A stretch of 64,000 nucleotides of DNA, from contig JBFWUP010000001.1 of the NCBI GenBank assembly GCA_050247195.1, positions 853,725-917,724 of the forward strand. The letters run 5' to 3'. Shown here one piece after another: positions 1,843-57,661 of the stretch. The translations under genes and the position numbers were made by a program. The stretch is from Candidatus Melainabacteria bacterium (GTDB lineage: Bacteria > Cyanobacteriota > Vampirovibrionia > Vampirovibrionales > Vampirovibrionaceae). Positions within the stretch are counted from its first letter, which is position 1; the number at the start of each line of letters is the position of its first letter. The notes beneath the pieces were generated by a model, which ran no database searches, was not told where the DNA came from, and saw only the letters and a program-made list of their open reading frames with translations.

Positions 1843-3375
1843 TTATCCCCGGGGTTTCAGCGTGGGAAAGGCGATGACATCGCGGATGTTCGTGGCGTTG
1901 GTCAGCAGCATCACCAGCCGGTCGATGCCCACCCCCAGACCGCCAGCCGGCGGCATGCCGTATTCCAGCGCCGTCACATAATCTTCATCCATGCCGTGCG
2001 CTTCCTCGTCGCCGCCATCACGCTGCGCCAGCTGATCCTCGAAACGCTGCCGCTGATCGATCGGGTCGCTGAGCTCCGAGAAGGCGTTGGCCACCTCCCA
2101 GCCGTTAATGCGGGTTTCAAATCGTTCCACCAGGCGCGGGTCATCCCGGTGCGCCTTGGCCAGGGGGGAAATTTCACGCGGGTAATCCGTAATATGGATG
2201 GGCTGAATCAGTGTGTCTTCAATTTTGACTTCAAACACCTGCTCCAATACCGAGCCCCAGCGTTCGCTGTCATCCACTTTCACGCCCAGCGCGCGGGCGG
2301 CATGACGCGCATCCTCATCGGTGGTGATGGTCAAAAAGTCCACGCCGGTGGCTTCCAGCACGGCCTGATTCATCGATTTTCTGGGCCAGGGTGGGGTGAG
2401 ATCCAGCGTGTGTTCCCCGTAAGCGACTTTGGTGGTGCCCAGTACAGCCTTGGCCACGGTGGCCACCATCGTTTCAAACAGGGTCATCATGTCGTTGTAA
2501 TCCGCGTAGGCCTGGTAGGCTTCCAGCATGGTGAATTCCGGGTTGTGCCGCGGCGAGATGCCTTCATTGCGGAAGTTGCGGTTCAGTTCAAACACTTTTT
2601 CCGAGAGACCGCCCACAATCAGGCGCTTCAGATACAGCTCCGGCGCAATGCGGAGCACCATATCCATATCCAGGGTGTTGTGGTGGGTGTGGAAGGGTTT
2701 GGCGGCCGCCCCGCTGGCCATGGGTTGCAGCATGGGGGTTTCCACTTCCAGAAAGCCCTGGTTGAGGAAAAACTTGCGGATTTCCGAGATGATCAGACTG
2801 CGACGCACCAGCGTTTCGCGGCTGTCCGTGTTCATAATCAGATCGAGATAACGCTGGCGGTAGCGCGTTTCCACGTCGGTCAGGCCATGGAATTTTTCCG
2901 GCAGCGGGAGCAGGGATTTGCCGAGCAGTTCAAAATGGCTTACCTTCACGCTGAGTTCCCCGCGCGGGGTGCGGCGCGGGGTGCCGGTGGCGCCGATGAA
3001 ATCGCCGATATCCAGCAGTTTCAGCTGCGCCATCAGCTCGGGGCTGAGGTGTTCCTTGTGGCAGAACAGCTGCACCTTGCCGGTGGGGTCCTGCAGGTCA
3101 ATAAACAACCCGCTGTTGCGGATGGCCATAATCCGCCCGGCGGCGCTCACCACATCATCGGACTCCTCGCCGGGCTGCAGGGGATCGTAGTCAATCTGCA
3201 GCCGGCCGTTGCTGTGGGTTTTTTCAAATCGGTAGGGGTAGGGGTTCACGCCCTGGGTCACCCAGGTGTTCAGGGTGTTCAGTCGATCCTGGCGGATGCG
3301 CGAGTGATCGGCGTGGGCGTCGGTGGCGGGGGTGTCGGCGTTGGTCATATCGGCAGGCGTCGTTGCGGCAGTCAT
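1843..3375 (-). CDS. lysS: Lysine--tRNA ligase, class II
   Basis: 510-aa ORF with N-terminal OB-fold anticodon-binding region and class II motifs (...[14 protein letters not shown]...), closely matching LysS. Confidence 0.9.
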
Positions 3376-3625: not shown

Positions 3626-4857
<1,232 letters not shown>

Positions 4858-4888: not shown

Positions 4889-6469
4889 TCAGCGGGCGGT
4901 CTGCTGCAGCTGGAGTCTGATTTCGCGGATCTGCTGGACGAGAACCGGGTGGTTGTCCAGCAGGGCTTTGAGTTTCTCGTAGGCGTACAGAATGGTGGTG
5001 TGTTTGCGCCCGCCCAGAAGTTCCCCGATCTTGGGAAAGCTCGCTTCGGTGAGTTCACGCACCAAGTAAATGGCCACCTGTCGCGCGTGAGAGACATCCT
5101 TGCTGCGCAGCTGGCTTTTGAGGTCCGAGGCCTGCAGGTGGTAATAGCGGGCCACGGTCTCCACAATGGTTTCCTTGCTCAGCCGGGCCGGGTCCACCGT
5201 GGCGCCCAGCAGGTTTTTGGTGGTGGCCACATCCATGGGGGACTTGGTCAGCAGTGCGTAAGCCACCACTTTGTTCAGGGCGCCTTCCAGCTCGCGGATG
5301 TTCTGCGGACGCAGTTCAGCGACGGTGGCCATCACGTCACCGGGAATATGCACGGCGCCGTGCGGGCCGTCGGCCGGGTAATCGCGCGCGGCCTTGCGCT
5401 GCAGAATGGCCATGCGGGTTTCAAAATCCGGCGGCTGAATGTCGGCGATCAGCCCCCACTCAAAGCGGCTGCGCAGCCGGTCTTCCAGCCGTGAGAGGTG
5501 ACTGGGCGGCCGGTCGCTGGAGAGGATGATTTGTTTGCCGGCCCCGTGCAGGGTGTTGAAGGTGTGGAAGACTTCCTCCTGCGTGCGGGTTTTGCCTTCC
5601 AGAAACTGCACGTCATCAATAATGAGCACATCAATGTGGCGGTATCGGTTCTGGAAGGCCGTCATGCCCTGTTTGGCGCCGAGGGTGTGAATCAGGTCAT
5701 TGGTGAACTGTTCGGCCGTCACATAGCGCACCACGAGATCCGGATGGTGCTGCAGCACAAAATGCCCGATGGCCTGAATGAGGTGGGTTTTACCCAGCCC
5801 CACGCCGCCATGGATAAAAAACGGGTTGTACTGGCAGGCGGGGCTTTCGGCCACGGCCATGGCGGCGGCAAAACAGAACCGGCTCTGTTCGCCCACCACA
5901 AAGTGATCAAACGTGTAGCGCGGGTTGAGGTTACCCGCGTTGCTGCGCGGTGTCCAGGGGCGCCAGGGCAGTTCCGCCGGTTGTGTGCCGGCCAGCGGCT
6001 GGTTCGCGCCGGAGGAGGGTGCGGCGACCGCCGGACGGGCGACAGGCGAGCGTTCTTGTGTGGCGGCTTCCGGCTGAGGCGCCGGGTCTCCGACAGTCAC
6101 CGTGATCGTCAGGGGGCGACCGGTCACGCCGGGCGCCACGTTCTCCAGCGCGGGTTTGTAATGCTTCATCACCCAGTCGCGATGAAACGCGCTGGGGGCT
6201 GTGATTTCCAGCTGATCGCCAGAAAGGCCGGTGGCTCTCAGCGGGGCCAGCCAGGTTTCATAGCCCGGTCCGCCAATATCCGGCTTCAGGGTGTCACGCA
6301 GCTGGCGCCACAGCGCGTCCCATTCCGCCGGCGCTGCGCCGGCAGCGGGCTGTCTTGAGCGGCCGGCCAGCGTCCCGCTCAGGCTGTGCGCCATTGGTTT
6401 GCGTTCGCCCTCGGCACCGGATTCAGTCAGGGGGGAACCAGCCAGTGGGAGCGAGGTGGGCACAATCAC
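4889..6469 (-). CDS. dnaA: Chromosomal replication initiator DnaA
   Basis: AAA+ Walker A GVGLGKTHL, DnaA domain I-like N-terminus and C-terminal DNA-binding domain (...VAIYLVRELT...). The track start is a GTG at 6469; an alternative ATG is at 6394. Confidence 0.9.
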   Translation of the reverse strand: MIVPTSLPLAGSPLTESGAEGERKPMAHSLSGTLAGRSRQPAAGAAPAEWDALWRQLRDTLKPDIGGPGYETWLAPLRATGLSGDQLEITAPSAFHRDWVMKHYKPALENVAPGVTGRPLTITVTVGDPAPQPEAATQERSPVARPAVAAPSSGANQPLAGTQPAELPWRPWTPRSNAGNLNPRYTFDHFVVGEQSRFCFAAAMAVAESPACQYNPFFIHGGVGLGKTHLIQAIGHFVLQHHPDLVVRYVTAEQFTNDLIHTLGAKQGMTAFQNRYRHIDVLIIDDVQFLEGKTRTQEEVFHTFNTLHGAGKQIILSSDRPPSHLSRLEDRLRSRFEWGLIADIQPPDFETRMAILQRKAARDYPADGPHGAVHIPGDVMATVAELRPQNIRELEGALNKVVAYALLTKSPMDVATTKNLLGATVDPARLSKETIVETVARYYHLQASDLKSQLRSKDVSHARQVAIYLVRELTEASFPKIGELLGGRKHTTILYAYEKLKALLDNHPVLVQQIREIRLQLQQTAR

Positions 6470-6917
6470 AATCCGTTCAGCATCAGGACATCACAGCAGA
6501 GCTCACCGGGACACCGGGGATGTCTAACCACATCTCAGGCACACGGATCCGGTCTAACTCTCAAACCACCGTATCGGCGGCTTTTCCCCTCCGAAACGGG
6601 ATATTTAATTTAGCATAAGCCGCCAGCGGATCGATCGGCGCGTAACCACACTTTTACATTCAGAATACATTCCGGTTCTATTCTGTCTGCATTTCGCCAT
6701 AAGACCGGCCAGGCTCTGATTTCAGCGCTTAAAACGGCCCTGCTGACGCCGCAGAAAGGCGGAAGAGAACCGGTGTTTTGCCAAAGACTGTGTCTGTGGT
6801 AAAACATTGCTTCCGGCCCGTTAACAGGTGCCGGGTGGTCTTACTGAAGGCGGCATTTCCCGCCTGCCTCACCGGATCGCCTGCGATCCCCTCCCCTCAA
6901 CCTCTGGAGATTGAACG
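6470..6917. promoter_or_regulatory. dnaA/rpmH divergent intergenic region; candidate oriC and divergent promoters
   Basis: Conserved dnaA<->rpmH synteny (established). Moderately AT-rich. Contains three TWACCACA-like motifs (6524, 6643, and reverse complement at 6793), each matching only 7 of 9 positions of the TTATCCACA DnaA box. No perfect box. Confidence 0.4.
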
Positions 6918-7052
6918 ATGAAACGTACACTGGAAGGCACTCAGCGTAAACGTCGCCGGGTCAGTGGTTTCCGTACCCGCATGCAGACAGCTGCCGGTCG
7001 CCGCGTGCTCAGCCGCCGTCGCGCCAAGGGTCGGCACAAAATAGCCCTGTAA
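6918..7052 (+). CDS. rpmH: 50S ribosomal protein L34
   Basis: 44-aa [47 protein letters not shown]. It is below the ORF-track size cut-off and was found by reading the sequence. The GAGATTGAACG region is upstream. Confidence 0.85.
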
Positions 7053-7063
7053 GCTGTTGGCCG

Positions 7064-7477
7064 TTGGCCATGCTTGCCAAGCCCAACCGTCTGAAATCCC
7101 CCCGCCTCTTTGAGCGTTTGCTGCGTGGTGGCCGTCAGACGGCCGATCGGGGGGCTGTGGTTTGCCTGGGGAAAAACAACCTTTTTGTGGTTTACGCCCT
7201 GCGGCATGACCCGCAGTTTACCGGCGTGCTGGCGCCCACGCAGTTCGGGCTGATTGTGAGCAAAAAGATTGATAAGCGCGCCGTGGTGCGCAACCGCATC
7301 AAGCGCCGCCTGCGGGATCTGATCCGCAGACAGGTGCTGCCGCTCCTGGCCCGGCAGGCCAGCCTGCCTTTCCGGGCCGTGGTGATTATTGCCCGCGACG
7401 GCCTGAAGGACGCGCCTTTCCGTCTGATTGACGAACGGCTGTCGGCCTGTTTTCAACCGCCGCAGGGGGCGTCATGA
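7064..7477 (+). CDS. rnpA: Ribonuclease P protein component
   Basis: Small basic protein with ...[11 protein letters not shown]... RnpA signature, immediately downstream of rpmH (conserved operon). Confidence 0.8.
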
Positions 7478-7779
7478 CACACCTGAACGCCATGCTGCAG
7501 GCATTGCTGCTGGTGGCGGTGCGCGCCTACCGGGCGCTGCGTCGTTACACCCGCTGGCTGGCGCCGGGCACGTGCCGGTTTCACCCCAGCTGTTCGCGTT
7601 ATGCCCTGGAGGCCATTACCGCTTACGGCGCCTGGCGCGGCGGCTGGCTGACCCTGAAGCGGATTGCCCGGTGTCATCCGTATCATCCGGGTGGCGTGGA
7701 TCCGCTACCCCCGCCTGAAACACCCGTCCGGCCCGCGTTTCATCGCCGGCCTTTTATTGCCGGTGTGCGCGGTTTATGA
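7474..7779 (+). CDS. yidD: Membrane protein insertion efficiency factor YidD
   Basis: Motif [15 protein letters not shown] typical of YidD. Overlaps the rnpA stop by 4 nt. Located upstream of yidC. Confidence 0.8.
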
Positions 7780-7829: not shown

Positions 7830-8918
7830 GTGGATTTAATTAATAACGCGATCTTTTTTCTGATCAACGCCATCCATGATGTGGTGGGCAGTTACGGCTG
7901 GTCCGTTGTTATCATTACGGTGCTGATCCGCGTGCTGCTGTGGCCCACCAATACGGCCCAGACCAAATCCATGCGCAAAATGCAGGAACTGCAGCCCAAG
8001 CTGAAAGAACTTCAGGCCCGCCACAAGGACAACCCGCAGAAACTGCAGGAAGCCATGATGAAGTTCTATGCCGAAAACAAATTCAACCCCATGGCCGGCT
8101 GCCTGCCCATGATCATCCAGCTGCCGATTTTTATCGGTCTGTTCGGCGCGCTCAACAGCCCGCAGTTTCTGGCCGAATCCGTTCACGAAAACTTCTTTTT
8201 TGTGGATAAGCTCTACAACACCCTGCACAGCCATGCCGGCGAGCCGCTGGATGGTCAGTTCAGCGTGGAGGACAAGGACACCTTTATGACCGGCAAAACC
8301 GCCACGCTGGTGATGAAGGATGGCCAGACCCGCGAGATGCCGGTCAAGGATATCCACAAAATCATTACCATCTCGCCCAAACCCCTTTTCCCCGGCAGTC
8401 CCATGCAGGTCACCCTCAATCTGGATCAGCTGGGGATTGAAGATGTGGGCTATTATGCCGACCGGCTGGCCTCAGCCAAAACCTATCTCATCAACAACCA
8501 GACCCGCGAGCTGGAGGACGTAACCTTTGAAAACACAAAGGGCAAACTGGTCGCCACCCTGAAAACCCTGCCCGGCCAGACCCGCTGGCACTGGGACGTC
8601 CTGGTGCTGATTGGGTTGTACGCCATTATGACCCTGCTGTACCAGCGGGTGATGAACCCGGCCAAACCCGCCGCCGCCGCCGCTCCGGCTGGCGATGATC
8701 AGGCGGCCATGCAGCAGAAAATGATGAAGATGATGCCCCTGATGTTTGTGGTGATTCTGTTCTTCATCCCCATTCCCGCCGGTGTGATGATCTACCTGGT
8801 GGTCACCACGGCCCTGATGTTCATTCAGACGGCCTGGGTGAACTGGTCTGAACAGAAGGCCGCTGCGGACACGGTTCCCACGCCCTCGCGACAGATTGTG
8901 GATGTGAAGGCGGATTAA
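7830..8918 (+). CDS. yidC: Membrane protein insertase YidC (short, Oxa1-like form)
   Basis: 362 aa with several transmembrane segments and the conserved ...PMIIQLPIFIGLF... core. Follows rnpA-yidD. Confidence 0.85.
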   Translation: MDLINNAIFFLINAIHDVVGSYGWSVVIITVLIRVLLWPTNTAQTKSMRKMQELQPKLKELQARHKDNPQKLQEAMMKFYAENKFNPMAGCLPMIIQLPIFIGLFGALNSPQFLAESVHENFFFVDKLYNTLHSHAGEPLDGQFSVEDKDTFMTGKTATLVMKDGQTREMPVKDIHKIITISPKPLFPGSPMQVTLNLDQLGIEDVGYYADRLASAKTYLINNQTRELEDVTFENTKGKLVATLKTLPGQTRWHWDVLVLIGLYAIMTLLYQRVMNPAKPAAAAAPAGDDQAAMQQKMMKMMPLMFVVILFFIPIPAGVMIYLVVTTALMFIQTAWVNWSEQKAAADTVPTPSRQIVDVKAD

Positions 8919-25838: not shown

Positions 25839-26822
25839 CTATTTGGCCAGGAACGTGTCCATGGCGGTCAGCACGGTGGGCCCCATCAGCACGATAAAAA
25901 TCGGCGGAAAAATAAAGAATACCAGCGGAATGGTCATTTTGACGCTCGCCTTGCTGGCGAGCTCCTCGGCTTTCTGTTTGCGGCGCACGCGCATGTCATC
26001 GGCGCAGACGCGCAGGGTATCGGCAATGCTGGTGCCCAGCTTGTCGCTCTGCACAATCAGGGAGCAGAGGGTTTTCAGTTCTTCCACACCGGACCGCGAG
26101 CCCAGGTTGTGAAAGGCTTCCTGCCGCTTGATGCCGGCGTTCAGCTCCAGGTTGAGCCGGGAGAATTCCCCGGCCAGTTCCGGGGAGATGTGTTTCATTT
26201 CCTCAGCCACCCGGAAAATCGTGGAATCCAGACCCAGGCCGGATTCCACGCAGATGACCATCAGATCCAGCGCATCGGGCAGGCGGTACTGAATTTCTTT
26301 TTTCCGTTTGCCGGCCAGGCCCCGCAGTTTCATCTGAGGCATCATGCTGCCGCCCAGCATACCCACAATGGCCCCACCCAGGGCCATGGTCATGGTTTTG
26401 CCCAGAATGAGCCCCAGGGGCAGCCCTATCACACCACAGATCAGCCCCACGGCCACGCGATGGGTGATGAATTTCCAGACGTGCTGATCGCTGTCCGGCC
26501 GGCCGGCTTCGGTCAGAAGCGTTTTAATTTCCTGCTGGAACTTGGTGTTGTTACCATACAGTTTGTGAGAAATGGGCTCCGAGAAGGTATTCACTTCGCG
26601 GAACATATCGTCAAACAACCCTTTTTCCACAGGCGGGCCCTGCTGCGCTGTCGGTTCGCCGGCATCTTTCATGGCCAGCAGCCGTTCTTTCAGCAGGTTC
26701 TCCTTGTACGTGGCGCTGGAAATAGCCAGCAGGGTGAAAATAAACACTGCAATGGCTGCAATCACGCCGGCTATGCCGAGCGTGAGAATCATGGTGAAAT
26801 CAAGTTGCGGAAAATGAAACAT
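25839..26822 (-). CDS. tadC: Tad pilus assembly inner-membrane protein TadC (GspF-like)
   Basis: Polytopic membrane protein with T2SSF-like domain. Position in the tad operon. Confidence 0.75.
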   Translation of the reverse strand: MFHFPQLDFTMILTLGIAGVIAAIAVFIFTLLAISSATYKENLLKERLLAMKDAGEPTAQQGPPVEKGLFDDMFREVNTFSEPISHKLYGNNTKFQQEIKTLLTEAGRPDSDQHVWKFITHRVAVGLICGVIGLPLGLILGKTMTMALGGAIVGMLGGSMMPQMKLRGLAGKRKKEIQYRLPDALDLMVICVESGLGLDSTIFRVAEEMKHISPELAGEFSRLNLELNAGIKRQEAFHNLGSRSGVEELKTLCSLIVQSDKLGTSIADTLRVCADDMRVRRKQKAEELASKASVKMTIPLVFFIFPPIFIVLMGPTVLTAMDTFLAK

Positions 26823-26825
26823 CGG

Positions 26826-27821
26826 TTACACGCGGATATCGACAATTTTACTGATGATGAAGCCGCCGATACACTGCATCAGCACCGCCACGCCCAGGGC
26901 GAGGTTACCCAGCGGTTTCTGGAGCAGGGGGTCCATGTAGCCCGGCATAAAGAGAGACAGGCCAAAAAAGAGCAGAATCGGCGCGGCGCCCAGTACATAG
27001 CCTGTCAGGCGGGACTGCCCGGTGAGCGCGGCGACCTGCCCTTTGAGTTTAAAGCGTTCCCGGATGGTATAGCTTAGTTTGTTGAGCAGTTCGGCAAGGT
27101 TGCCGCCGGTTTCCCGCTGAATCATCACGGCGGTGGCGAACATCCGGATGTCGGGGGACTCATCGAGGGTTTCCGTCATCCGGTACAGCGCCTCCTTAAC
27201 GGGCACGCCCAGGTTAATGTCACTGACCAGGGCGGAGAATTCAACCCCGATTGGCGCCGACATTTCCGTGGAGACCACAGTGAGTGCCGACTGAAAGGAG
27301 TGCCCCGCCTTGAGGGCGCTGGTAATCAGGTTAAGCGCTTCGGGAAACTGCACGGTGAATTTTTGCAGGCGCTGATTCTTTTTAAAGGTGACAAACAGGT
27401 TGACCAGAACCGGCACGACCAGACCGCCCAGCATCATGACCATATTTTTTACCACCAGGCCCAGCAGAAGGAGGATCATCATGGGCATGAGGATGTATTT
27501 GACGGCCAGTTCGTCGGACTTCAGCTGAAGGTCCGTCTGGCGGACCGTGTTTTTGAAATGGCGGAACAGGGCAATTTTTTCCAGGGCCTGGCCGGTCTGC
27601 GGATTCCTGTAATCGGATTTCTTGATATACCGTTCAATGGAAACGGTTTCCTGCAGATCGGCGCCCGTGCGGATGGTGGATTGGGTGGTTTTCAGCGTGG
27701 TCAGGCGCTCTTCAATCAGGCTGGGTTCCGGGTTGAAGTAGCGCTGCATAAAAAACACGCTGAAACCCAGAGCGATGGCCACGAGGGCGAACAGCGCGAT
27801 AATGCTGACAAGTTCCAGCAC
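26826..27821 (-). CDS. tadB: Tad pilus assembly inner-membrane protein TadB (GspF-like)
   Basis: T2SSF-like membrane protein paralogous to TadC, adjacent to cpaF. Confidence 0.75.
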   Translation of the reverse strand: MLELVSIIALFALVAIALGFSVFFMQRYFNPEPSLIEERLTTLKTTQSTIRTGADLQETVSIERYIKKSDYRNPQTGQALEKIALFRHFKNTVRQTDLQLKSDELAVKYILMPMMILLLLGLVVKNMVMMLGGLVVPVLVNLFVTFKKNQRLQKFTVQFPEALNLITSALKAGHSFQSALTVVSTEMSAPIGVEFSALVSDINLGVPVKEALYRMTETLDESPDIRMFATAVMIQRETGGNLAELLNKLSYTIRERFKLKGQVAALTGQSRLTGYVLGAAPILLFFGLSLFMPGYMDPLLQKPLGNLALGVAVLMQCIGGFIISKIVDIRV

Positions 27822-27833
27822 GTCACACTCCTC

Positions 27834-29312
27834 CTATTCCACCGGTCGGGCAAATATGTGCTCGGGGATCTGAATGCCTTTGGCCTTGGCGATTTCCAGA
27901 AAGCGGGGACGGATACCGGTGGCGACATGGCGCCCGATGACCCGGCCCTCTTCATCCAGGCCCTGCTGTTCGTATTTAAAAATTTCCTGCATGGTGACCT
28001 TCTCGCCTTCCATGCCGGTCAGTTCCGCAATGCTGGTGGTTTTCCGCTGGCCGTCCATCAGCCGGCTGACCTGCACAATGATGTGGACGGCTGAGGAAAT
28101 CTGCTGGTTAATGGTTTTTTCCGGCAGAGGGTTGTCGTTCATCATGCACATGGTCACAATCCGAGAGAGTGCGTCGCGCGGAGTGTTGGCGTGCAGCGTG
28201 GTCAGCGATCCATCGTGACCCGTGTTCATGGCCTGCAGCATTTCCAGGGTTTCACCGCCCCGGCACTCCCCAATCACAATCCGGTCCGGGCGCATCCGCA
28301 GAGAGTTGATGAGCAGCTGGCGGGCCGTAATCTGGCCTTCGCCCTCAATGTTGGGCGGGCGGGTCTCCAGTCGCACCACATGATCCTGCTGAAGCTGCAG
28401 TTCCGCAGAGTCTTCGATGGTGACGATCCGCTCGTTGTGGCTGATGAGCGAGGACAGGCTGTTGAGCAGGGTGGTTTTACCGGAGCCCGTTCCTCCAGAG
28501 ATGACGATGTTGAGGTGACATTTGACCGCCGCATCCAGCAGCATGGCCATATCCGGCGTCATGGAGCCCCAGTTGATCAGTTTCTCCAGGGTGCCGGCAT
28601 CCTGTTTGAATCGGCGGATGGAGACCGAGGGCCCGTCCAGCGCCAGTGGCGGAATGATGGCGTTAAAACGCGATCCGTCCTTCAGGCGGGCGTCCACCAT
28701 CGGGTTTTTCTCATCCACGCGTCGGCCCACAGCCGAAACGATGCGTTCAATAATGTGCATCAGGTGCGCATCGTTGCGAAAACGCACCATGGTGCGTTCC
28801 AGTTTTCCGTTGCGCTCCACATAGATTTTCTGTGAGCCGTTGATCATGATTTCTGAAATCAGGGGGTCGCGCAGCAGGGTTTCCAGCGGACCCAGGCCGA
28901 TAATTTCTTCAACAAGCTCCTGAACCAGGGCATTCCGCTCGGACTGCCCCATGGGTATTTTTTCCTTCACCAGGTATTGTTCCAGGAACTGCTGGGCAGC
29001 CACATGGACTTCCTCGGGGCGGAGCTGTTCGGAGGAGGCAATGTTGAGGTTGTCCACCAGCAGGCTGTGGACTTTCATTTTAAGTTCTTCAAACCGTTCG
29101 CCGCGGTTACTCAGCGGAATATCATGAATGGCGGACTGGCTCTGCGTTTGTGCCGGAGCGGCAGTCTGGGCCGGCGCCTGATAGGTGTTCTGCGGGGGTT
29201 GCGCTGAAGCCGGTGCGGGCGCAGGCTGGCTGTAAGAGCCGCCCGGCGCAGGCGCGCCAAAGGACTGGGGCGCTTTGGGGCTGGGTTTATTCAGGCGGTC
29301 GCGTAAAGACAT
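27834..29312 (-). CDS. cpaF: Tad pilus secretion ATPase CpaF/TadA
   Basis: Walker [10 protein letters not shown], Asp box, Walker B and His box of VirB11/GspE-family ATPases. Low-complexity Pro/Ala/Gln-rich N-terminus. Confidence 0.85.
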
Positions 29313-29339
29313 AAAACCTATGGGGTGTTACTGAACCGG

Positions 29340-30566
29340 TTAATGCTTGCCGAACAGATTGCCCAGCAGACGGGTGGGTTTCAGGGTGTTTTCCAGCGTG
29401 GTTTCACCGGCCTCATCCCCGCTGACTTTGCCGCACAGCTTGTAGGCAAAGTCCATATAGTTCTGGACAATCTGCCTGCTGCCATCCACCTTGTCGATGG
29501 GGATTCCCCGGTTGATGGCCGTCATGATGACGTGGTAGGCGTTGGGAAACTGCCAGAAGACAGGGTGCTCCAGCGTGTCCTCCACGTCGTCAATGGTGAT
29601 TTCATCATCGTTGACGTAACGGTTCACCACCAGTTTGATCTTGTGCTTGTCATATCCCAGGCGCTCAAACAAGCCGAGCAGACGCTGGCTGCTGCGGATG
29701 CTGGGCAGATTGACAATGGAGACCAGCAGAATATCGTCCGCCAGGTCCAGGGCGGTCAGGGTTTTGGAGTCAAAGGAGGTGGTCGTGTCAATCACCACAT
29801 ACTCAAAGCTGGCGCGCAGAACGGTCAGCACCGCGTTAATCTGTTCCGCCGTCAGGTCCTCGGCCTCTTCAACGTTCATCGGGTCGGCCAGAATATAGAC
29901 CTGAGCCTGGCCGTCGTTGAATTCGGCCAGGGAGCTTTCCAGATAGCTTTTATCCACCCGGCCGATGTTGCGCGCAATGTCAACAATGGTCTGCTTGGGT
30001 TCAATGTCCAGAAAAGTCGTGATGTCACCCAGCTGCAGGTTCAGATCGACAATAACCACGGGTTTGTGAATGGCCTTGGACAGGGCGAGCGCCGTATTGA
30101 CGGCAATGGTGGTTTTGCCCAGCCCACCCTTGTTGCTGAAAACGGTGACAATGCGGCCGGAGTTGTCGCCCATGCCGTGATCGATGTTGAGGGACATCTG
30201 GTATTTGTCGATGACCCTCTGCACGTCTTCCGGCTGGAAGGGACGGCGGATGAATTCCCGTGCGCCGGCCTGCATCAGGGCCATAACCAGGTCCATGGAA
30301 ACGGTTTCACCCGAGACAATGATGACGCTTTCCCTGAAGTAGGTTGAAATCCGGTTGATCAGTTCAATGGATTTCTGCGGGTCTTTTCTCAGATCCACAA
30401 ACACCATGTTGGGCCGGTTGTGTCGGATGACTTCGTAGCCGTAAACCAGACTGTCCGTCTCAGCCAGCACTTCGCCGTTTTCATAGGCGCCTTCCACCGT
30501 GCTGCGGATAACGCCGCGTGCGGCCTCGTCTTCGTCGATGATGACTATGCGGATGGGATTGGACAT
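29340..30566 (-). CDS. cpaE: CpaE/TadZ-like pilus assembly protein: N-terminal receiver-like domain fused to MinD/ParA-type ATPase
   Basis: N-terminal CheY-like fold (RIVIIDEDE...) plus deviant Walker A KGGLGKTT. Confidence 0.75.
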   Translation of the reverse strand: MSNPIRIVIIDEDEAARGVIRSTVEGAYENGEVLAETDSLVYGYEVIRHNRPNMVFVDLRKDPQKSIELINRISTYFRESVIIVSGETVSMDLVMALMQAGAREFIRRPFQPEDVQRVIDKYQMSLNIDHGMGDNSGRIVTVFSNKGGLGKTTIAVNTALALSKAIHKPVVIVDLNLQLGDITTFLDIEPKQTIVDIARNIGRVDKSYLESSLAEFNDGQAQVYILADPMNVEEAEDLTAEQINAVLTVLRASFEYVVIDTTTSFDSKTLTALDLADDILLVSIVNLPSIRSSQRLLGLFERLGYDKHKIKLVVNRYVNDDEITIDDVEDTLEHPVFWQFPNAYHVIMTAINRGIPIDKVDGSRQIVQNYMDFAYKLCGKVSGDEAGETTLENTLKPTRLLGNLFGKH

Positions 30567-30595
30567 GGGGATTTGATTCGCCTTTAAGGTGGGGA

Positions 30596-31975
30596 CTACT
30601 TCAGGGCCTGTTTATCACGGCCCAGAATATGGCCGTAATCGCCCTGTTTCACAATGCGGGGCGTTACAACCACGATGAGTTCTTTATCCACTTTGGTGTT
30701 GTCCGTGTTGCGGAAGAGACCGCCGAGGATGGGCAGGTCGCCGGCAAAGGGCACTTTGGACATGGTGTTGCGCTCCTCGCGGGTGAGGATGCCGGAAATC
30801 ATCAGGCTCTCGCCATCTTCCAGCTCCACGGTGGTGGAGGTGGTGCGTTTCAGCAGGCCGCACACCTGGGTGCCGCCCGCGCCGGTGACGCAGCTGGAGG
30901 TATCCAGGCTGCTGACTTCCGGTTCCACCTTCACTTCAATCCGCTTGGATCGGATGGCGATCCACGGGGTGAAGTTCAGCTTTACGCCAAAGTCCTTGAA
31001 CTGGATAATGGGACTGCCGTTCTGGTCCGTTGAGGCCACAAAGGGGAATTCGCCGCCTGCCAGGAAACTGGCGGTCCGGCCGTGGGTGCAGACCAGGGTG
31101 GGTTCCGCCAGAACAGTAATTTTGCCTTCGGTTTCCAGCAGGTCCCAGGCGGCCTGGAAATTCTCACCGAACGGCGAGAATGCGCCCGTAATGCCGCCGG
31201 CGTTGGTACCGGCCTGGTTCAGGCGGATGGGCCTGAGAGGCACCAGGCCCTGGGTGGTGCGGCCCACAGCGGTCAGCACCGTGTCGTCAATCGCCTGGCC
31301 CAGGCGGGTCAGCGAGAGCGAATTGCCGGAATCCGTGGAGAAGGAGGTTTTGATTTGCCGCGCGGTTGATTTGTTGGTTTCGGCGATTTTCACTTCCAGG
31401 TACACCTGCGGCACGGGGGATTCGGTCAGGTCAATAAAGTTTTTGTCGCGGTAACCATAAGCGGCGGCCGTGCGGCGGATTTCATCGAGAATGACGGAGT
31501 TGGAGACCTGGCCGGACAGGATAAAGGAGTCATCGGTGACGCGCGCCTGGATTTTTTCGTTGGGAGCCACCATGCCAATGGCTTTCAGCAGTTCCGAGGT
31601 GTCATTTTCAACATACAGATCAAAAATGCCTTCCTGCCCGTTTTCATCCCAGACAATAAAACTGGTGACGCCCCGCGCCTTGCCGTGAATCATGATCTCG
31701 TCCGGTCCGAGAGGCACCACTTCGGCCAGCGCCGGGTCGGCGATGGAAACACGGGGAATGGGCTGGGCGAACTTGATGATCTGTGAACGCCCCTTGGTAA
31801 CCCGCAGGCTGGTCACGCCACCCTGAAGGGTGGTGGTTTCTTCAGGTGGCGTTGTCTGCGCGTAGGTGCGCGCGCCGCGCCACAGGCTGCAGCCGGCAAG
31901 CAGCAGGGCCACCAGCAGAAAAGCGATCATCCGCCGCGGCATGAACCGCAGGGTGCGTATCCGTTGTGACGGCAT
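30596..31975 (-). CDS. cpaC: Tad secretin CpaC/RcpA
   Basis: BON/secretin N-domains and C-terminal secretin core (...GGLFRNTDNTKVDKELIVVVTPRIV...). Start chosen at MPSQRIRTLRFMPRRMIAFLLV (signal peptide with lipobox-like LAGC). The track's longer ORF overlaps cpaB. Confidence 0.75.
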   Translation of the reverse strand: MPSQRIRTLRFMPRRMIAFLLVALLLAGCSLWRGARTYAQTTPPEETTTLQGGVTSLRVTKGRSQIIKFAQPIPRVSIADPALAEVVPLGPDEIMIHGKARGVTSFIVWDENGQEGIFDLYVENDTSELLKAIGMVAPNEKIQARVTDDSFILSGQVSNSVILDEIRRTAAAYGYRDKNFIDLTESPVPQVYLEVKIAETNKSTARQIKTSFSTDSGNSLSLTRLGQAIDDTVLTAVGRTTQGLVPLRPIRLNQAGTNAGGITGAFSPFGENFQAAWDLLETEGKITVLAEPTLVCTHGRTASFLAGGEFPFVASTDQNGSPIIQFKDFGVKLNFTPWIAIRSKRIEVKVEPEVSSLDTSSCVTGAGGTQVCGLLKRTTSTTVELEDGESLMISGILTREERNTMSKVPFAGDLPILGGLFRNTDNTKVDKELIVVVTPRIVKQGDYGHILGRDKQALK

Positions 31976-31994
31976 GGTCAAAGCCAGAATCCTT

Positions 31995-32996
31995 TCAGGG
32001 TTGGTCAAAGTTGTAGGAGTCTTTCCCACTGCCTTTGTAGATCTCCATGGTGAAGCCGCCCTTGCTGCCCATGCCGCTGTCGTCGGTGGGGTTGGGCAGG
32101 TCACTCTGCGTGAGGTTGGCTGGCAGAATATTGCCGCCGGCCGGCAGTTGCATGGCGGGCAGGTTGGCCGGCACCAGCGGCAGCGGCGCCATCCGGCCCG
32201 TAATCAGGTAGTCCAGGTCGGCGCCGGAGACTTTGACTTTCTGATGGTCTTTAAAATTGCGGAGCGTCAGCTGAAACTTGCCGATATTCTGTGCCAGGGT
32301 GAGTAGCTCGGCCTGCTGCGGGGTTACGGCCACCGTCACTGCGCCGCTGGTAGGGGCCATGGCGGCTGCACCGGGTGTGGGCGCTGCCAAGGCGCTGCCC
32401 ATGCTGATGACCTGGATACCCTGCAGAAGGGTTTTACTGAAAGTCTGGTTGTTCTGGCTGATGGTGGTCAGAATATCGACCAGCGAGCCGGGCATGAGCG
32501 CTCCGCCCACACTGCCGATGTTGTCCACCGGAATCGTCACGGCCCGCATGCCTTCATCCACCTGCAGCATGTTGTCATACTTGCGGACTTTGTCCCGCGT
32601 GAGGGTTTCCCCGGCCAGCAGGCGACCCACGGCGTATTTGCCCACGGCATCCGAGGTGCGTTTGAGCACGACGGCCGGCGGCGGGTTTTCCACTTTCACG
32701 GCTTCCACCATGGCTTTGGTAATCACTTCACCGGGGTCAATATCGCGAATGGCCTGAACTTCCATGTAGTTTTCAACGGCTTTTTTCTCGGTGGTTTCCT
32801 TCATCAGCCGTTCATTCTCGGCTTTCAGCTTTTTGGCGATCGCCTCGGTTTCCTCGGTTTTTTTGTTGGCCGCCGTGGTGGCGTTGCTGATGACCATAAA
32901 CGTGAGGGCAATGGCGCCGATACCGATAATGACCGCCAGAACGCCGGCCAGCACAAACTGGATCAGAACTTTTTTGGGGCGTCTGCGGACAACCAT
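31995..32996 (-). CDS. cpaB: Flp pilus assembly protein CpaB/RcpC (SAF domain)
   Basis: N-terminal transmembrane anchor plus SAF/CpaB domain. ATG at 32996 is preceded by AAAGAGG SD. Confidence 0.7.
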   Translation of the reverse strand: MVVRRRPKKVLIQFVLAGVLAVIIGIGAIALTFMVISNATTAANKKTEETEAIAKKLKAENERLMKETTEKKAVENYMEVQAIRDIDPGEVITKAMVEAVKVENPPPAVVLKRTSDAVGKYAVGRLLAGETLTRDKVRKYDNMLQVDEGMRAVTIPVDNIGSVGGALMPGSLVDILTTISQNNQTFSKTLLQGIQVISMGSALAAPTPGAAAMAPTSGAVTVAVTPQQAELLTLAQNIGKFQLTLRNFKDHQKVKVSGADLDYLITGRMAPLPLVPANLPAMQLPAGGNILPANLTQSDLPNPTDDSGMGSKGGFTMEIYKGSGKDSYNFDQP

Positions 32997-39555: not shown

Positions 39556-39784
39556 CGGTTGTTTTCCTCTTCTCGCGGACATGACATGAATCAAAATCAT
39601 ATCCTATAAATATAAAAACATTTTTTAATGAAGATTTGCGACTTTCCGGGGTAAGTGTTACCAAATTGTTACAAAATTTTCAGGGTCTGATGCGCGCCAA
39701 ATTCACGCCCTGAGCGGGTTTGAAAATTTCAAGAGGGGCGCGATCAGAAAATGCAGGCAATTTTTTACCGGGTACCGCGCTGTT

Positions 39785-41182
39785 TTGCGTGAACGCTGGT
39801 GGTCGCGTTTGCGGTTTTCACCGGGGAAGTCGTCAAGCGCCTTACCCGCACAAAAATGGGAAAAACCGTTTTTATGCCAGTGGGGGAAGTCTGATCCGGT
39901 CACACCCGGCACCCTGCACCCTTCGATCCAGGGGTGGGCGATATCTGAAAGCAGTATCAGCGTTCCGCACCTGGCGCAGGCAGCGTCACCGGACTATTCA
40001 CCTGCGGATACAGCGAGAGGCAGCGTTTTTTTGAGCACCATCGGCAGCACAACCCACTTTACCGGCCTACCGTCTATTTTCGGGGGTCCGGCCAACCAGA
40101 CAACTGCTCCGTCACGTTCGGTCGGGGTGAGCGCACCGGGTCACCCCGGTGAGGCTTCCCTGGCCGGACTGGCGGCCCCTTCCCCAGCCACATCCACCAC
40201 TTTCGCCCGGGCCGGGATCACCCCGGGCAGTGGTCAGCCACCGTCCGCCTTGGTTTCAGGAATTTCTCCGTTTGCCTTTACCGGGGGCACCCGCAGCGTG
40301 GCCGAAGAGACCGCCCTGCTGCGTCGTTCGCCGGTCATCGATCTGTCCGGCCGCCGGGCGGCCGACCGCACCTTTGGGGATGTTTTTACCCACAAGGCCG
40401 GCATCTGGGCCTCGCGCATGGGCGCCGGCGAGCTCTTTGATCACGCGTTTGAATCCATGGGCAAACGCGGCTTTGATCCAGTACTGAATACATCTATGGA
40501 AAATACCTTACTACTGGGTAAGCCAGATTTAACAAAGAGCATTTCTAAAACCTACCCATATGGTTATGAGGGCTTATTCTCACTACGTGGTGCTCAGGAT
40601 GTTACACCTGCATATCTGCGTAGCCCGAAAGCTTATAAAGACCTGTTGCATTACAACTTTAAGCCTCACTTGGAATTCTATCGTCCGTCTAATCTGCGTC
40701 ATCAGATGGCACAAGGTGAAGGTCTTTTTAAATTCGGCCTAAAGGATTACTTCACCAAAACCCTGTGGGGTCGCAATATCGATCCCATTCGCCCGGCCAA
40801 CCTGATCAAAGCCGAGGCGTCAGGTCTTGGAAAAATCTCCGGCGCTGGTGTGGCGCAGGCGCTCGGATTGGGCCTGTTTGGCTGGGATATCGCCAAAACA
40901 ACGAAGACCGCTTACGACAACGCCCGCCACGAAGATGGGGCCGCCACGGTTTCCATTGCTGCCGAGACCGGCAAAGAGTTCGCCAAGCAAGCTACCAAAA
41001 GCCTCATTACTTGGGAAATAGCTGGCGCGGGCCTTGCCGTTGGGCGCAAAGTTTTGCCAGGGGTTAATATTGGCAACCATCACATCCCACTGGGTGGCAT
41101 GGTGGTTGGCGCATTACTGGCAACCGGAATGAACCAAGTTTTGGAGCGAGTCGCACCAAAACCAAAAAAGCACCTGAATTAA
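39785..41182 (+). CDS. Modular hypothetical protein: Ser/Thr/Pro/Gly/Ala-rich N-terminal half, lower-GC foreign-codon C-terminal half ending in a glycine-zipper hydrophobic hairpin; candidate polymorphic toxin or bacteriocin-like effector
   Basis: Track ORF with TTG start; no in-frame ATG until about 40420, so the true N-terminus is uncertain. From about 40480 onward the composition is about 40-50% GC with cgt/ctg/aaa codon preference, unlike neighbouring genes. C-terminus is ...KSLITWEIAGAGLAVGRKVLPGVNIGNHHIPLGGMVVGALLATG... Confidence 0.5.
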   Translation: MRERWWSRLRFSPGKSSSALPAQKWEKPFLCQWGKSDPVTPGTLHPSIQGWAISESSISVPHLAQAASPDYSPADTARGSVFLSTIGSTTHFTGLPSIFGGPANQTTAPSRSVGVSAPGHPGEASLAGLAAPSPATSTTFARAGITPGSGQPPSALVSGISPFAFTGGTRSVAEETALLRRSPVIDLSGRRAADRTFGDVFTHKAGIWASRMGAGELFDHAFESMGKRGFDPVLNTSMENTLLLGKPDLTKSISKTYPYGYEGLFSLRGAQDVTPAYLRSPKAYKDLLHYNFKPHLEFYRPSNLRHQMAQGEGLFKFGLKDYFTKTLWGRNIDPIRPANLIKAEASGLGKISGAGVAQALGLGLFGWDIAKTTKTAYDNARHEDGAATVSIAAETGKEFAKQATKSLITWEIAGAGLAVGRKVLPGVNIGNHHIPLGGMVVGALLATGMNQVLERVAPKPKKHLN

Positions 41183-47633: not shown

Positions 47634-48473
47634 TTACTGGATCAACCGCAGGGCTTCTTCCAGCAGGTTTTTGTTGGTGGAAATCAGTTTTGAGGTGAAA
47701 TCCATCTGCAGCTTGGCCTGCTGCAGTAGCGCCACGCTGCCGCGGATATCCACGTTGGATTTTTCCAGCAGGCCTTCCCGGATTTCACCTGTGCCGGCCA
47801 CCGGCTCGCCGGAGAGGGCTGTGGTCTGGAACATCTGATCTTCTGTTTCCGCAAGGCCACCGGGGTTCACAAAGTTGACGAGAGCCACTTTGTACAGCGG
47901 GGTGACCACACGGCCCTGTTCGGCAATGCCCACGAGGGTGCCGTCGGAACGGGTTTTGAATTCATCATACTTGCCCAGGAACTTGCCGTTGGCGGGGTCC
48001 ACCCACAGGTTAATGCCCACGGTGGGGGTGTGTCCCGGTCCGCCCTGGCTGTGGCTGGGGTTATTGGCCGTGCCGCCCGGGTTGGTGGCGCCGCCCGTAC
48101 TCACCGGATTGCCGTCATCGCCCAGCATGTAGCCCTGCAGGGCATAACCCTTGCTGTTGACCAGATTGCCTTCAGCATTGAAGCGAAAGTCGCCCAGGCG
48201 GGTGAAGAAAAGCCCGCCATCGGGCTTGCGCACGGCAAACATGCCGTTGCCCTCAATAAACATGTTGGTGGGCGCGGTGCCGGGTATGGCTTTGCCCTGT
48301 TCCGTACTGCGCGGGGTCTCACTCAGCCGCACGCCGTTCACATAATCCGAGAACGTGGAGGTGACCTCCCGGTAGCCCGGTGTGTACATATTGGAGAGAT
48401 TCTGGCTCAGGGTGCCAATCCAGCCCTGGGCGGCCTTCTGGGAGTTCAGCGCTGTAATGAAGGGGTCAAACAT
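47634..48473 (-). CDS. Flagellar hook/basal-body rod family protein (FlgE/FlgF/FlgG-like, short)
   Basis: Conserved rod/hook N-terminus (...MYTPGYRE...) and C-terminus (...SNVDI...LLQQAKLQMDFTSKLISTNKNLLEEALRL). Confidence 0.6.
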   Translation of the reverse strand: MFDPFITALNSQKAAQGWIGTLSQNLSNMYTPGYREVTSTFSDYVNGVRLSETPRSTEQGKAIPGTAPTNMFIEGNGMFAVRKPDGGLFFTRLGDFRFNAEGNLVNSKGYALQGYMLGDDGNPVSTGGATNPGGTANNPSHSQGGPGHTPTVGINLWVDPANGKFLGKYDEFKTRSDGTLVGIAEQGRVVTPLYKVALVNFVNPGGLAETEDQMFQTTALSGEPVAGTGEIREGLLEKSNVDIRGSVALLQQAKLQMDFTSKLISTNKNLLEEALRLIQ

Positions 48474-48515
48474 GCCGGGTTACTCCTGGTTGCGCCAAAC
48501 ACGGCGTTGGCGTCG

Positions 48516-49295
48516 TTATTCCAAATCCCACGGTGATGACTGCTGACGACGGGGATGGCCGTCCTGTTCCGGTGACTGATCCTGGTATTCCAGCGTGCCG
48601 ACAGGCAGATTGCGGGCAATCATGCGCTGGCGCAGGTCATCCAGTTGCTGCTTGATGTAGAAGGCGCCGGCGCGGTCGGCTGAGACGAAGCTGGCGGACA
48701 CCTGCCCGTTGACGATGCGCAGAATCAGCGAAGAGTCCTTGTCCATATCGATACGGATGGCCTGTCCGGTTTTATAGCCTTTTTCAATCAGGCGGGTCAT
48801 ATTGTCGGAGAGCGTGTACCCGCCGAAATCCAGCTGGCCGCTGCCCGTGGTTTTAAATACGGTGTCCAGCGGTACGCTGCCCATCACAATGGGCAGGGCG
48901 GGTATCACAACCTGCTTCAGGTAACTCAGGTCATCGGGGCCCAGCTGGTGCATCAGCAGGGTGAGATCCTGCGGGGAGAGATCCTGATCATCGGCGCCCG
49001 TCCTGCGTTGAACCGGGCCAGGATTATCGGCGTCAGTCACCGCCGGCTGAACGACCGGCGCGGGGGTGGTTTCTCTCTGCGCGTTTGCAGCCGGTTTCTC
49101 GGCGGCAGGGGGTTCGGCCGTGCGGCTGGTGGCGCCGGGCTGGGGAAGACCGGCTTCCTGGACGCTGCCCAGTAAATCCAGAAACGCCAGATCCAGTGCG
49201 TCCAGGCCACTCTGGGCCGTGCTGCCCTGGACACGCTGCACGCGTCCGCCGTATTGCAGGGCATAGGCTTTCAGTTGGGCGTTCTGAATGTCCAT
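48516..49295 (-). CDS. fliK: Flagellar hook-length control protein FliK-like
   Basis: C-terminal region (...SLILRIVNGQVSASFVSADRAGAFYIKQQLDDLRQRM...NLPVGTLEYQDQ) fits the FliK C-terminal (Flg_hook) pattern. Pro/Ala-rich central linker. Position between fliJ and the hook-like gene. Confidence 0.5.
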   Translation of the reverse strand: MDIQNAQLKAYALQYGGRVQRVQGSTAQSGLDALDLAFLDLLGSVQEAGLPQPGATSRTAEPPAAEKPAANAQRETTPAPVVQPAVTDADNPGPVQRRTGADDQDLSPQDLTLLMHQLGPDDLSYLKQVVIPALPIVMGSVPLDTVFKTTGSGQLDFGGYTLSDNMTRLIEKGYKTGQAIRIDMDKDSSLILRIVNGQVSASFVSADRAGAFYIKQQLDDLRQRMIARNLPVGTLEYQDQSPEQDGHPRRQQSSPWDLE

Positions 49296-57606: not shown

Positions 57607-57661
57607 GTCCTGTTTTCCTACAATGGTCCTACTTGCTGCCCTCACCTGGATTTTTCTTTGC

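Follow-up and report, generated by a model that had tools for sequence, protein, structure and literature searches.

The dnaA-rpmH spacer of a melainabacterial genome is probably a divergent promoter region and not the replication origin

In the window, by which we mean the whole stretch of 64,000 nucleotides (64 kb) analysed here, a minus-strand group of lysS (1843-3375), mdh (3874-4839) and dnaA diverges from a plus-strand operon that starts with rpmH (6918-7052; ribosomal protein L34, Pfam Ribosomal_L34, E = 7e-17) and continues with rnpA (7064-7477), yidD (7474-7779) and a short yidC (7830-8918). The Pfam assignments thus confirm the divergent layout reported in a preliminary description of this DNA, which was also correct in stating that dnaA is followed by mdh and not by dnaN-recF-gyrB. 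The longest dnaA reading frame starts on the minus strand from a GTG at 6469 (4889-6469) and encodes an intact DnaA with all four domains (Pfam DnaA_N, Bac_DnaA and Bac_DnaA_C); the product annotated in the assembly has 524 aa. The likely coding sequence, however, is 4889-6394, starting from ATG 6394 and not from GTG 6469, since DnaA_N begins only at residue 52 of the longest frame and the N-termini of the relatives are short; homology to the relatives starts approximately 27 residues past M26. With the GTG start the dnaA-rpmH spacer covers 6470-6917, and with the ATG start 6395-6917, or 523 bp. Its G+C content is 0.56, as compared with 0.60 for the window, and a search for Rfam families in the spacer gave no match (best E-value 0.34). 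At approximately 50 kb from dnaA lies mnmG, within a plus-strand reading frame at 57425-59635 (Pfam); the assembly annotates a 657-aa product, which after coordinate conversion lies at about 57662-59635. A gap of some 55 bp separates mnmG from the gene before it, and at its other end it directly adjoins mfd, in agreement with the earlier remark that this gene, 50 kb off, has no origin-like spacer. For analyses that needed more sequence, flanks were added from contig JBFXCH010000001.1 of the metagenome-assembled genome GCA_050182425.1, giving 81.5 kb in total. By coordinate conversion, the window corresponds to about 18.4-82.4 kb of that contig, reversed, and the spacer lies at about 76 kb. No dnaN was present among the approximately 50 larger reading frames of the window, the gene calls of the added flanks include none either, and the window contains neither parS sites nor tRNA genes that could serve as origin-proximal markers.

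The closest DnaA proteins among 185,579 species genomes belong to Vampirovibrionales and are merely 52-60% identical to the one studied here, and the rpmH|dnaA layout is kept in 13 Vampirovibrionales relatives. The lack of an adjacent dnaN is common to all 16 melainabacterial dnaA loci with identified flanking genes; two more distant loci and three melainabacterial loci fetched via DnaA homologues (32-46% G+C) likewise have no dnaN next to dnaA. Downstream of dnaA, the scanned relatives have a convergent gene of the methionine-gamma-lyase family and then an M23 peptidase gene. The situation resembles that in the Cyanobacteria, members of the same superphylum, where dnaA also stands away from dnaN and the origin has no fixed association with dnaA. 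Namely, oriC was predicted or tested to lie beside dnaN in 55 of 68 cyanobacterial species, with boxes of the form TTTTCCACA (PMC4674748), a difference being that no cluster of TTTTCCACA exists anywhere in the 81.5 kb here. In the literature searched, we found no description of a melainabacterial origin. The results suggest that the cyanobacterial separation of dnaA from both dnaN and the origin extends to the non-photosynthetic sister class.

Aligned with the spacers of the 13 relatives, the spacer (6395-6917) has the appearance of a divergent promoter region with both 5' leaders. The only well-conserved stretch of the alignment is a block of approximately 75 bp (6605-6690) with 17 invariant columns, in which the rpmH and dnaA promoters would stand back to back, with long 5' leaders on either side. 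Across the 14 spacers, the consensus of the block is GCAAAAAATCTTTATGTAAAAGCTTTGATACGC, about 20 nt and CTATGCTAGACT. It is conserved across the order Vampirovibrionales and is kept even in the locus L087, whose DnaA is 49% identical. Towards rpmH, the block reads TTTACA, 16 nt, and then TATATT, TATGAT or TATAGT, and in three of the relatives (L006, L002 and L005) a promoter scan calls TTTACA-16-TATATT or TTTACA-16-TATGAT at the aligned site, matching 10 of 12 positions. In the window, the same scan returned no full rpmH promoter: the -35 hexamer TTTACA is kept at 6653-6658 on the plus strand, and the -10 element is degenerate beyond recognition. Towards dnaA, the element TGCTAAATT (6607-6615, minus strand), for which the relatives have TGCTAGACT, is probably an extended -10 promoter of dnaA, judging from its conservation; C/TTATGCTAGACT at this element is kept in 14 of 14 spacers. 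The consensus scan requires a -35 element as well and made no call at this putative promoter. A small upstream reading frame from ATGGTTAG in the dnaA leader was also considered and was rejected, its frame not being conserved.

Three words related to TWACCACA flank or overlap this block. The preliminary description had listed three such motifs with 7 of 9 matches to the DnaA box, and they are real. Box 1 is CTAACCACA at 6524-6532 and box 2 is GTAACCACA at 6642-6650, both on the plus strand, while box 3, TTTACCACA, lies on the minus strand at 6795-6803, in the rpmH-proximal part of the spacer. Each is a 7/9 match to the canonical box, and box 3 is in addition the sole spacer site within one mismatch of TTWTNCACA (8/9); generic tests for enrichment do not reach significance. 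On the plus strand at 6563-6570 there is a fourth and weaker word, AAACCACC, which came from a repeat search and is a candidate only; it is adjoined by GTCTAACT (6552-6559), a second copy resembling the leader motif discussed below. Within the 81.5 kb, TWACCACA occurs five times, and three of these occurrences are in the spacer. In the 13 relatives, it is found three times in 7 kb of dnaA-rpmH spacers, namely in those of L004, L007 and L010, as against four times in 150 kb outside them, an enrichment that is inflated by shared ancestry, with L002, L003 and L011 being mutually close. It should be noted that in an unbiased repeat test 523 bp of this GC-rich genome typically hold 8-mer families of 4-10 members, so that three copies of a word are, as a number, unremarkable. 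Boxes 1 and 3 share more than the word itself, forming a 13-nt inverted repeat, ATGTnTWACCACA.

How do these words relate to what is conserved in the relatives? Read on the dnaA sense strand, box 1 becomes TGTGGTTAGAC (6522-6532, minus strand), a copy of a leader motif conserved in the lineage, [GT]GGTTAG[AG][GC], also written GGTTAGAG, which in loci like that of V. chlorellavorus stands 8-20 nt before the dnaA ATG. In 15 spacers, its core GGTTAG is present 15 times, each time in the sense orientation of dnaA, as compared with 39 occurrences on both strands in 252 kb outside, and GTTAG is invariant in the spacer alignment. Box 2 is part of the conserved block, with 2 bp between its end and the rpmH -35 hexamer; at its position the relatives have GTATCAAAG. 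As for box 3, a box-like word of like orientation is found in the relatives at a distance of 44-53 nt from the rpmH ATG, namely TTATCCATG in six loci and TTTACCACA itself in L004. The box 3 of the window is approximately 114 nt from the rpmH ATG, and we consider its orthology to the rpmH-proximal words of the relatives likely, though not certain. Three conserved elements thus coincide with the three words or lie close to them, namely the leader motif GGTTAGRS, the segment just before the rpmH -35 hexamer and the rpmH-proximal box-like site. On the whole, the words probably have a function around the promoters, and because of their placement they may be sites of DnaA autoregulation.

The preliminary description had put the spacer forward as a candidate oriC. 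The spacer does lie in the dnaA/dnaN neighbourhood where an origin is commonly sought, in that it adjoins dnaA. One would further expect an oriC to hold at least 3-5 boxes within one mismatch of the consensus, and the spacer has 3-4 copies of a non-canonical word. The earlier statement that it contains no perfect box can even be strengthened, as no site within one mismatch of TTATCCACA is present. With up to two mismatches, three boxes are found in the spacer versus approximately 1.35 expected from the flanks, and the relaxed consensus TTWTNCACA with up to one mismatch gives one match in the spacer versus approximately 0.7 expected (88 in the 64 kb), so that the relaxed search reveals no box enrichment. 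More generally, sites within one mismatch of TTATCCACA or TTTTCCACA number two or fewer in every 600-bp interval of the 81.5 kb, and no box cluster was seen near dnaA in 15 relatives, the exception being 3-4 scattered matches inside a dnaA coding sequence. An arrangement of boxes that is kept across related genomes, another mark of an oriC, is also absent: the relatives' spacers contain 0-2 box-like words each, differing in sequence, and only the promoter block is conserved. Finally, there is no AT-rich unwinding element in the spacer, where the richest 40 bp reach only 0.675 AT and correspond to the conserved rpmH promoter, while the AT content is higher at several sites elsewhere in the window; nor does the spacer hold a DnaA-trio run, that is, three or more consecutive trio-like triplets.

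The strand composition of the region points in the same direction. In the orientation of the window, the GC skew over 2-kb tiles of the 81.5 kb has a mean of +0.041, with 88% of the tiles positive, and it is positive almost throughout from -8.2 kb to +71.8 kb in window coordinates. The mean is +0.037 over the 14.5 kb to the left of the spacer (6 of 7 tiles positive) and +0.043 over the 66 kb to its right (28 of 32 tiles positive), with no difference between the two flanks (p = 0.71). A cumulative GC-skew minimum, which the candidate origin of the preliminary description should show, is not seen at the spacer; the cumulative skew climbs without reversal between -7.6 kb and +73 kb, and its lowest and highest values are those of the left and the right end of the stretch. 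This outcome and the missing box enrichment are two that the preliminary description had named as refuting its candidate. A dip to -0.022 at 5.8-9.8 kb is local; an origin in the spacer would predict a negative left flank. At third codon positions, the skew of the plus strand is positive for both gene orientations (+0.040 and +0.096), which means that the bias tracks the strand and not the direction of transcription. Likewise, in 10 of 13 Vampirovibrionales relatives the skew keeps its sign from one flank of the spacer to the other, and this sign varies between genomes, from which it follows that the dnaA locus lies inside a replichore, in either orientation. We infer from this that replication forks would traverse the dnaA-rpmH locus one way, left to right in window coordinates, and such one-way passage would place the origin past the left end of the 81.5 kb, above approximately 90.5 kb of JBFXCH010000001.1. 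That said, this evidence covers 81.5 kb of a genome of several Mb and assumes that skew in this genome is driven by replication, and some Cyanobacteria are known to have little or no GC skew (PMC7111523). With this scope in mind, strand composition argues for a replication origin outside the 81 kb examined, plausibly beside dnaN by analogy with the Cyanobacteria. The suggestion of the preliminary description that the origin may be elsewhere is thus supported by the skew as well as by the comparison with relatives, and fits the cyanobacterial pattern (PMC4674748).

All searches for boxes depend on the assumption that the protein reads the usual sequence. In E. coli DnaA, base-specific contacts are made by R399, P423, D433, H434, T435 and H439 (PMC2533591, PMC7561715). 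Aligned with the E. coli helix GGRDHTTVLHA, the DnaA of the window reads GGRKHTTILYA, so that Lys replaces Asp433 and Tyr replaces His439, two changes among the six contact residues, while Arg399, Pro423, His434 and Thr435 are retained. This change is common to 13 of 13 Vampirovibrionales loci, with Gly or Ser in two outliers, and at position 433 it sets melainabacterial DnaA apart from most other bacterial DnaA: Asp is present there in approximately 55 of the 62 DnaA proteins that came from other phyla. In the photosynthetic Cyanobacteria, too, DnaA would have Asp at this position. None of the best 120 homologues of the DnaA studied here (44-100% identity) has Asp at 433; a first pattern match on these gave Lys in 88, Arg in 16 and Thr in 2, and on inspection the majority of the others turned out to have Lys as well. 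Among the best 150 cluster representatives, by comparison, Asp is found in 118 of 142 parsed and Lys in 11, concentrated among the closest relatives. The named members of the Lys clusters include Candidatus Adamsella, which NCBI taxonomy places in the Cyanobacteriota/Melainabacteria group, Candidatus Obscuribacterales and Candidatus Melainabacteria. On these alignments, the change of Asp433 looks class-wide and could shift the specificity of the box, and because the DNA-reading helix is altered in the class, scans with canonical consensus sequences could miss real boxes. At the same time, a large shift in specificity is disfavoured, because a relative of 32% G+C with the Lys form of DnaA keeps near-canonical single boxes around dnaA, namely one ATATCCACA, one TTATCCACA and one TTTTCCACA. 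As regards the suggestion of the preliminary description that this lineage may use a divergent box, the altered helix thus speaks for it and these near-canonical boxes speak against it. One may still entertain the idea that DnaA of the Melainabacteria/Vampirovibrionia, with Asp433 changed to Lys or Arg and His439 to Tyr, reads a variant box, perhaps TWACCAC or TTATCCAT-like, in place of TTATCCACA, that an origin away from dnaA is built of such boxes, and that the three words of the spacer are their first examples. We put this forward tentatively, as a proposal with the odds well against it.

Taken together, we believe that the spacer is a control region shared by the divergent dnaA and rpmH-rnpA-yidD-yidC units and not a chromosomal origin, a reading to which we assign a probability of roughly 0.72. 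The case against an origin is one by exclusion, within 81.5 kb. In terms of mechanism, some or all of the words would be low-copy binding sites for DnaA, from which it would repress the dnaA promoter and perhaps that of rpmH too; autoregulation by DnaA appears to be the most economical reading of the words. The opposite possibility is that the spacer is an origin after all, one with few lineage-specific boxes (TWACCACA or TTATCCAT-like) read by a DnaA with Lys433 and Tyr439, and with the promoter block, modest as its AT content is, serving as the site of unwinding. In many bacteria, the origin has its ancestral place between rpmH and dnaA, the spacer studied here gathers 3-4 copies of a word with few occurrences elsewhere, canonical scans may be blind to the real boxes if the Asp433 contact has been lost class-wide, and the local skew dip falls on this very region. 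An origin is, however, hard to reconcile with a skew sign that stays constant over 14.5 kb on the left and 66 kb on the right, and with the missing switch in 10 of 13 relatives. The relatives' spacers carry at most one or two box-like words each, with differing sequences, neither an unwinding element nor a trio run is present, and box 1 coincides with a leader motif that in relatives adjoins the dnaA start codon. What is more, dnaA would by its skew be on the lagging strand, which is unusual for a dnaA next to an origin. We therefore consider an origin in the spacer quite improbable.

More weight, though still not much, can be given to the possibility that the spacer is a promoter and leader region only, in which the TWACCACA words have nothing to do with DnaA and are due to chance, are sites of another factor or act as elements at the RNA level. 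The generic tests for boxes fall short of significance and this genome has many repeated 8-mers, the relatives' sequences at the three positions are dissimilar (GGTTAGRG, GTATCAAAG and TTATCCATG), and the leader motif, in one orientation and within approximately 20 nt of the dnaA start in V. chlorellavorus-like loci, would suit a translation or RNA element. These points have to be set against the presence of a rare word three times in one spacer, each time at or near a conserved element, its reappearance in the spacers of three relatives, the inverted repeat common to boxes 1 and 3, and the fact that autoregulation of DnaA via boxes at its own promoter is widespread. On balance, we regard words without any relation to DnaA as unlikely. 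It is, finally, conceivable that there is no single fixed DnaA-dependent origin at all, as is reported for some polyploid Cyanobacteria, in which case no locus would be a classical oriC. The organism does belong to the Cyanobacteriota/Melainabacteria group, GC skew is slight or absent in some Cyanobacteria (PMC7111523), and a box cluster is absent from all melainabacterial loci examined. Yet the steady skew of about +0.04 over 81.5 kb, across genes on both strands, argues for a defined origin, and DnaA is intact in all four of its domains, which makes a genome of this kind extremely improbable here.

A shared control region of this sort has a close counterpart in E. coli, where dnaA is transcribed from dnaAp1 and dnaAp2, which have DnaA boxes and are divergent from rpmH, and where oriC is approximately 42 kb away beside gidA/mnmG. 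The likeness extends to the divergent rpmH-rnpA-yidD-yidC | dnaA layout, to the few box-like sites around the promoters, which are putative here, in place of a dense cluster, to a spacer that here, too, is probably not the origin, and to mnmG lying tens of kb away on the same stretch. The two differ in that dnaA of E. coli is followed by dnaN-recF-gyrB and here by mdh and lysS, in that the boxes of E. coli are canonical and here they read TWACCACA, and in that the E. coli origin is beside mnmG, which here has neither a spacer nor a skew switch. In Bacillus subtilis, Pseudomonas and others, by contrast, the origin occupies the rpmH-dnaA spacer. Origins of this B. subtilis type are marked by clusters of near-consensus boxes, by an AT-rich unwinding element with DnaA-trios and by a GC-skew switch; the spacer studied here shares their position, from rpmH to dnaA, and none of these three features was found in it. 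With regard to the altered helix, a precedent for the combination of changed domain IV contacts and a changed box is Thermotoga maritima. Its non-canonical 12-mer box is AAACCTACCACC, which contains TACCACC and so resembles the TWACCAC found here. In the DnaA of T. maritima contact residues have been lost (PMC7561715); the difference is that here two of six are changed.

As a divergent dnaA/rpmH control region, the spacer would be an ordinary one, and the altered DnaA helix is the more interesting of the two subjects. For the annotation of Melainabacteria, the practical meaning of our results is that the dnaA-rpmH spacer should not be assumed to be oriC. If the origin is indeed elsewhere, genome start coordinates and peak-to-trough estimates of growth rate that are anchored on dnaA would be wrong in this group. 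The apparently class-wide replacement of Asp433 by Lys or Arg, in turn, poses the question whether the sequence specificity of the initiator has shifted in a whole bacterial class.

Several other places were considered as origins and rejected. In the relatives, the spacer of 600-1000 bp on the 3' side of dnaA, between the methionine-gamma-lyase and M23 peptidase genes, has conserved words and no box-like repeats. The neighbourhood of mnmG shows no skew switch and, as described above, has no spacer. Canonical boxes inside yidC, at 8201 and 8350, are not conserved at the aligned codons in the 13 relatives. Two patches rich in AT, at 39.6 kb and 41.4 kb, and the gap that spans 1.0-1.8 kb were inspected by eye, and they present no convincing origin architecture and no skew switch. 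Within this gap, the stretch 1293-1609 does contain five matches to the relaxed consensus, two of them in a predicted reading frame and two in a palindrome at a convergent gene end.

The DNA-reading helix of DnaA is altered in the window genome and its kin. In E. coli DnaA, Asp433 and His439 make base-specific contacts (PMC2533591, PMC7561715). In Melainabacteria-type DnaA, as sampled in the window, in the rpmH-dnaA loci of 13 Vampirovibrionales relatives (L001-L013) and in the 120 best DnaA homologues (P0001-P0120), the position equivalent to Asp433 carries Lys, sometimes Arg or Thr, and His439 is replaced by Tyr, the window protein (dnaA, 4889-6394) reading GGRKHTTILYA; Asp occupies position 433 in the majority of the other bacterial DnaA proteins sampled. 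The clusters with the changed residue include sources named Vampirovibrionales, Candidatus Adamsella and Candidatus Obscuribacterales.

Box-like words are more frequent than expected across the window as a whole. With up to one mismatch, the relaxed DnaA-box consensus TTWTNCACA is matched 88 times, compared with 61 +/- 8 in shuffled sequences, a count reached by none of 100 shuffles, and TTATCCACA, at the same tolerance, occurs 15 times as against 7.1. This excess is diffuse, without clustering, and could reflect oligonucleotide bias or dispersed DnaA sites. Within the yidC coding sequence, a perfect TTATCCACA (8201-8209, minus strand) and an ATATCCACA (8350-8358, plus strand) are oppositely oriented and separated by 140 bp. 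They consist of codons that are AT-rich by the standards of this genome, and they are probably there by chance, since the aligned codons of the 13 relatives show no conservation of either word. Another group, at 1293-1630, comprises five relaxed-consensus matches inside 320 bp, among them CTATCCACA at 1293 and, at 1398, a TCATCCACA that faces the word TCACCACA, and is followed by the AT-rich palindrome CATTATGTAAAAATTTATACATAATG. A GHL10 gene and lysS converge on this stretch from its two sides; it overlaps a hypothetical ORF of 102 amino acids and shows no switch in GC skew of the kind expected at a replication origin.

All along the window and its flanks (-8157 to 73310), GC skew marks the plus strand as the leading strand. 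Transcription of dnaA, which is on the minus strand, would thus run head-on into replication in this genome. In the V. chlorellavorus-like relatives, skew and dnaA are co-oriented.

Where does dnaA itself begin? The start is ambiguous within 6394-6469: the longest ORF opens with a GTG at 6469 and encodes 526 amino acids, the public annotation gives a product of 524, and a repeat, CACAATCACAATC (6462-6474), lies at the annotated start. Judging from domain position and from the N-termini of the relatives, we favour the ATG at 6394, which would give a protein of 501 amino acids. The 5' leader of dnaA contains a motif, [GT]GGTTAG[AG][GC], conserved in the window, in L001-L013 and in the more distant locus L087, and present in the 15 spacers 15 times in the sense orientation and never in antisense. 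The window copies lie on the minus strand at 6522-6532 and 6552-6559. In V. chlorellavorus-like loci, the motif stands 8-20 nt 5' of the dnaA ATG (e.g., AAGAAGGGTTAGGGTTCCGCGATT|ATG), and no ordinary Shine-Dalgarno sequence was seen at that site; the motif could serve in translation initiation or in regulation.

Elsewhere, AT content in the window peaks at 39576-39650 (up to 0.88 over 40 bp), upstream of a 465-amino-acid ORF (39785-41182), which has no Pfam match and a low third-position G+C (0.58 versus about 0.73), and which may have been acquired horizontally. In relatives L002-L008, L011 and L012, a spacer of 600-1000 bp lies 1-3 kb downstream of dnaA, flanked by Met-gamma-lyase-family and M23 peptidase genes (e.g., L012, 8610-9284). 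It contains the conserved words ACGCTGACCAG, GCCAAGGCC and TACCATTATA and, in these loci, no box-like repeats; for the peptidase gene, this spacer may act as a leader or riboswitch. Finally, the window carries a Tad/Flp-type pilus cluster (two T2SSF genes, a T2SSE ATPase, a response-regulator/ParA-like protein and a secretin) and flagellar hook genes (25839-32104 and 47634-49295). Pilus and flagellar genes of this kind have been reported for predatory Vampirovibrio, and in L087 the same kind of pilus genes adjoin rpmH-dnaA.
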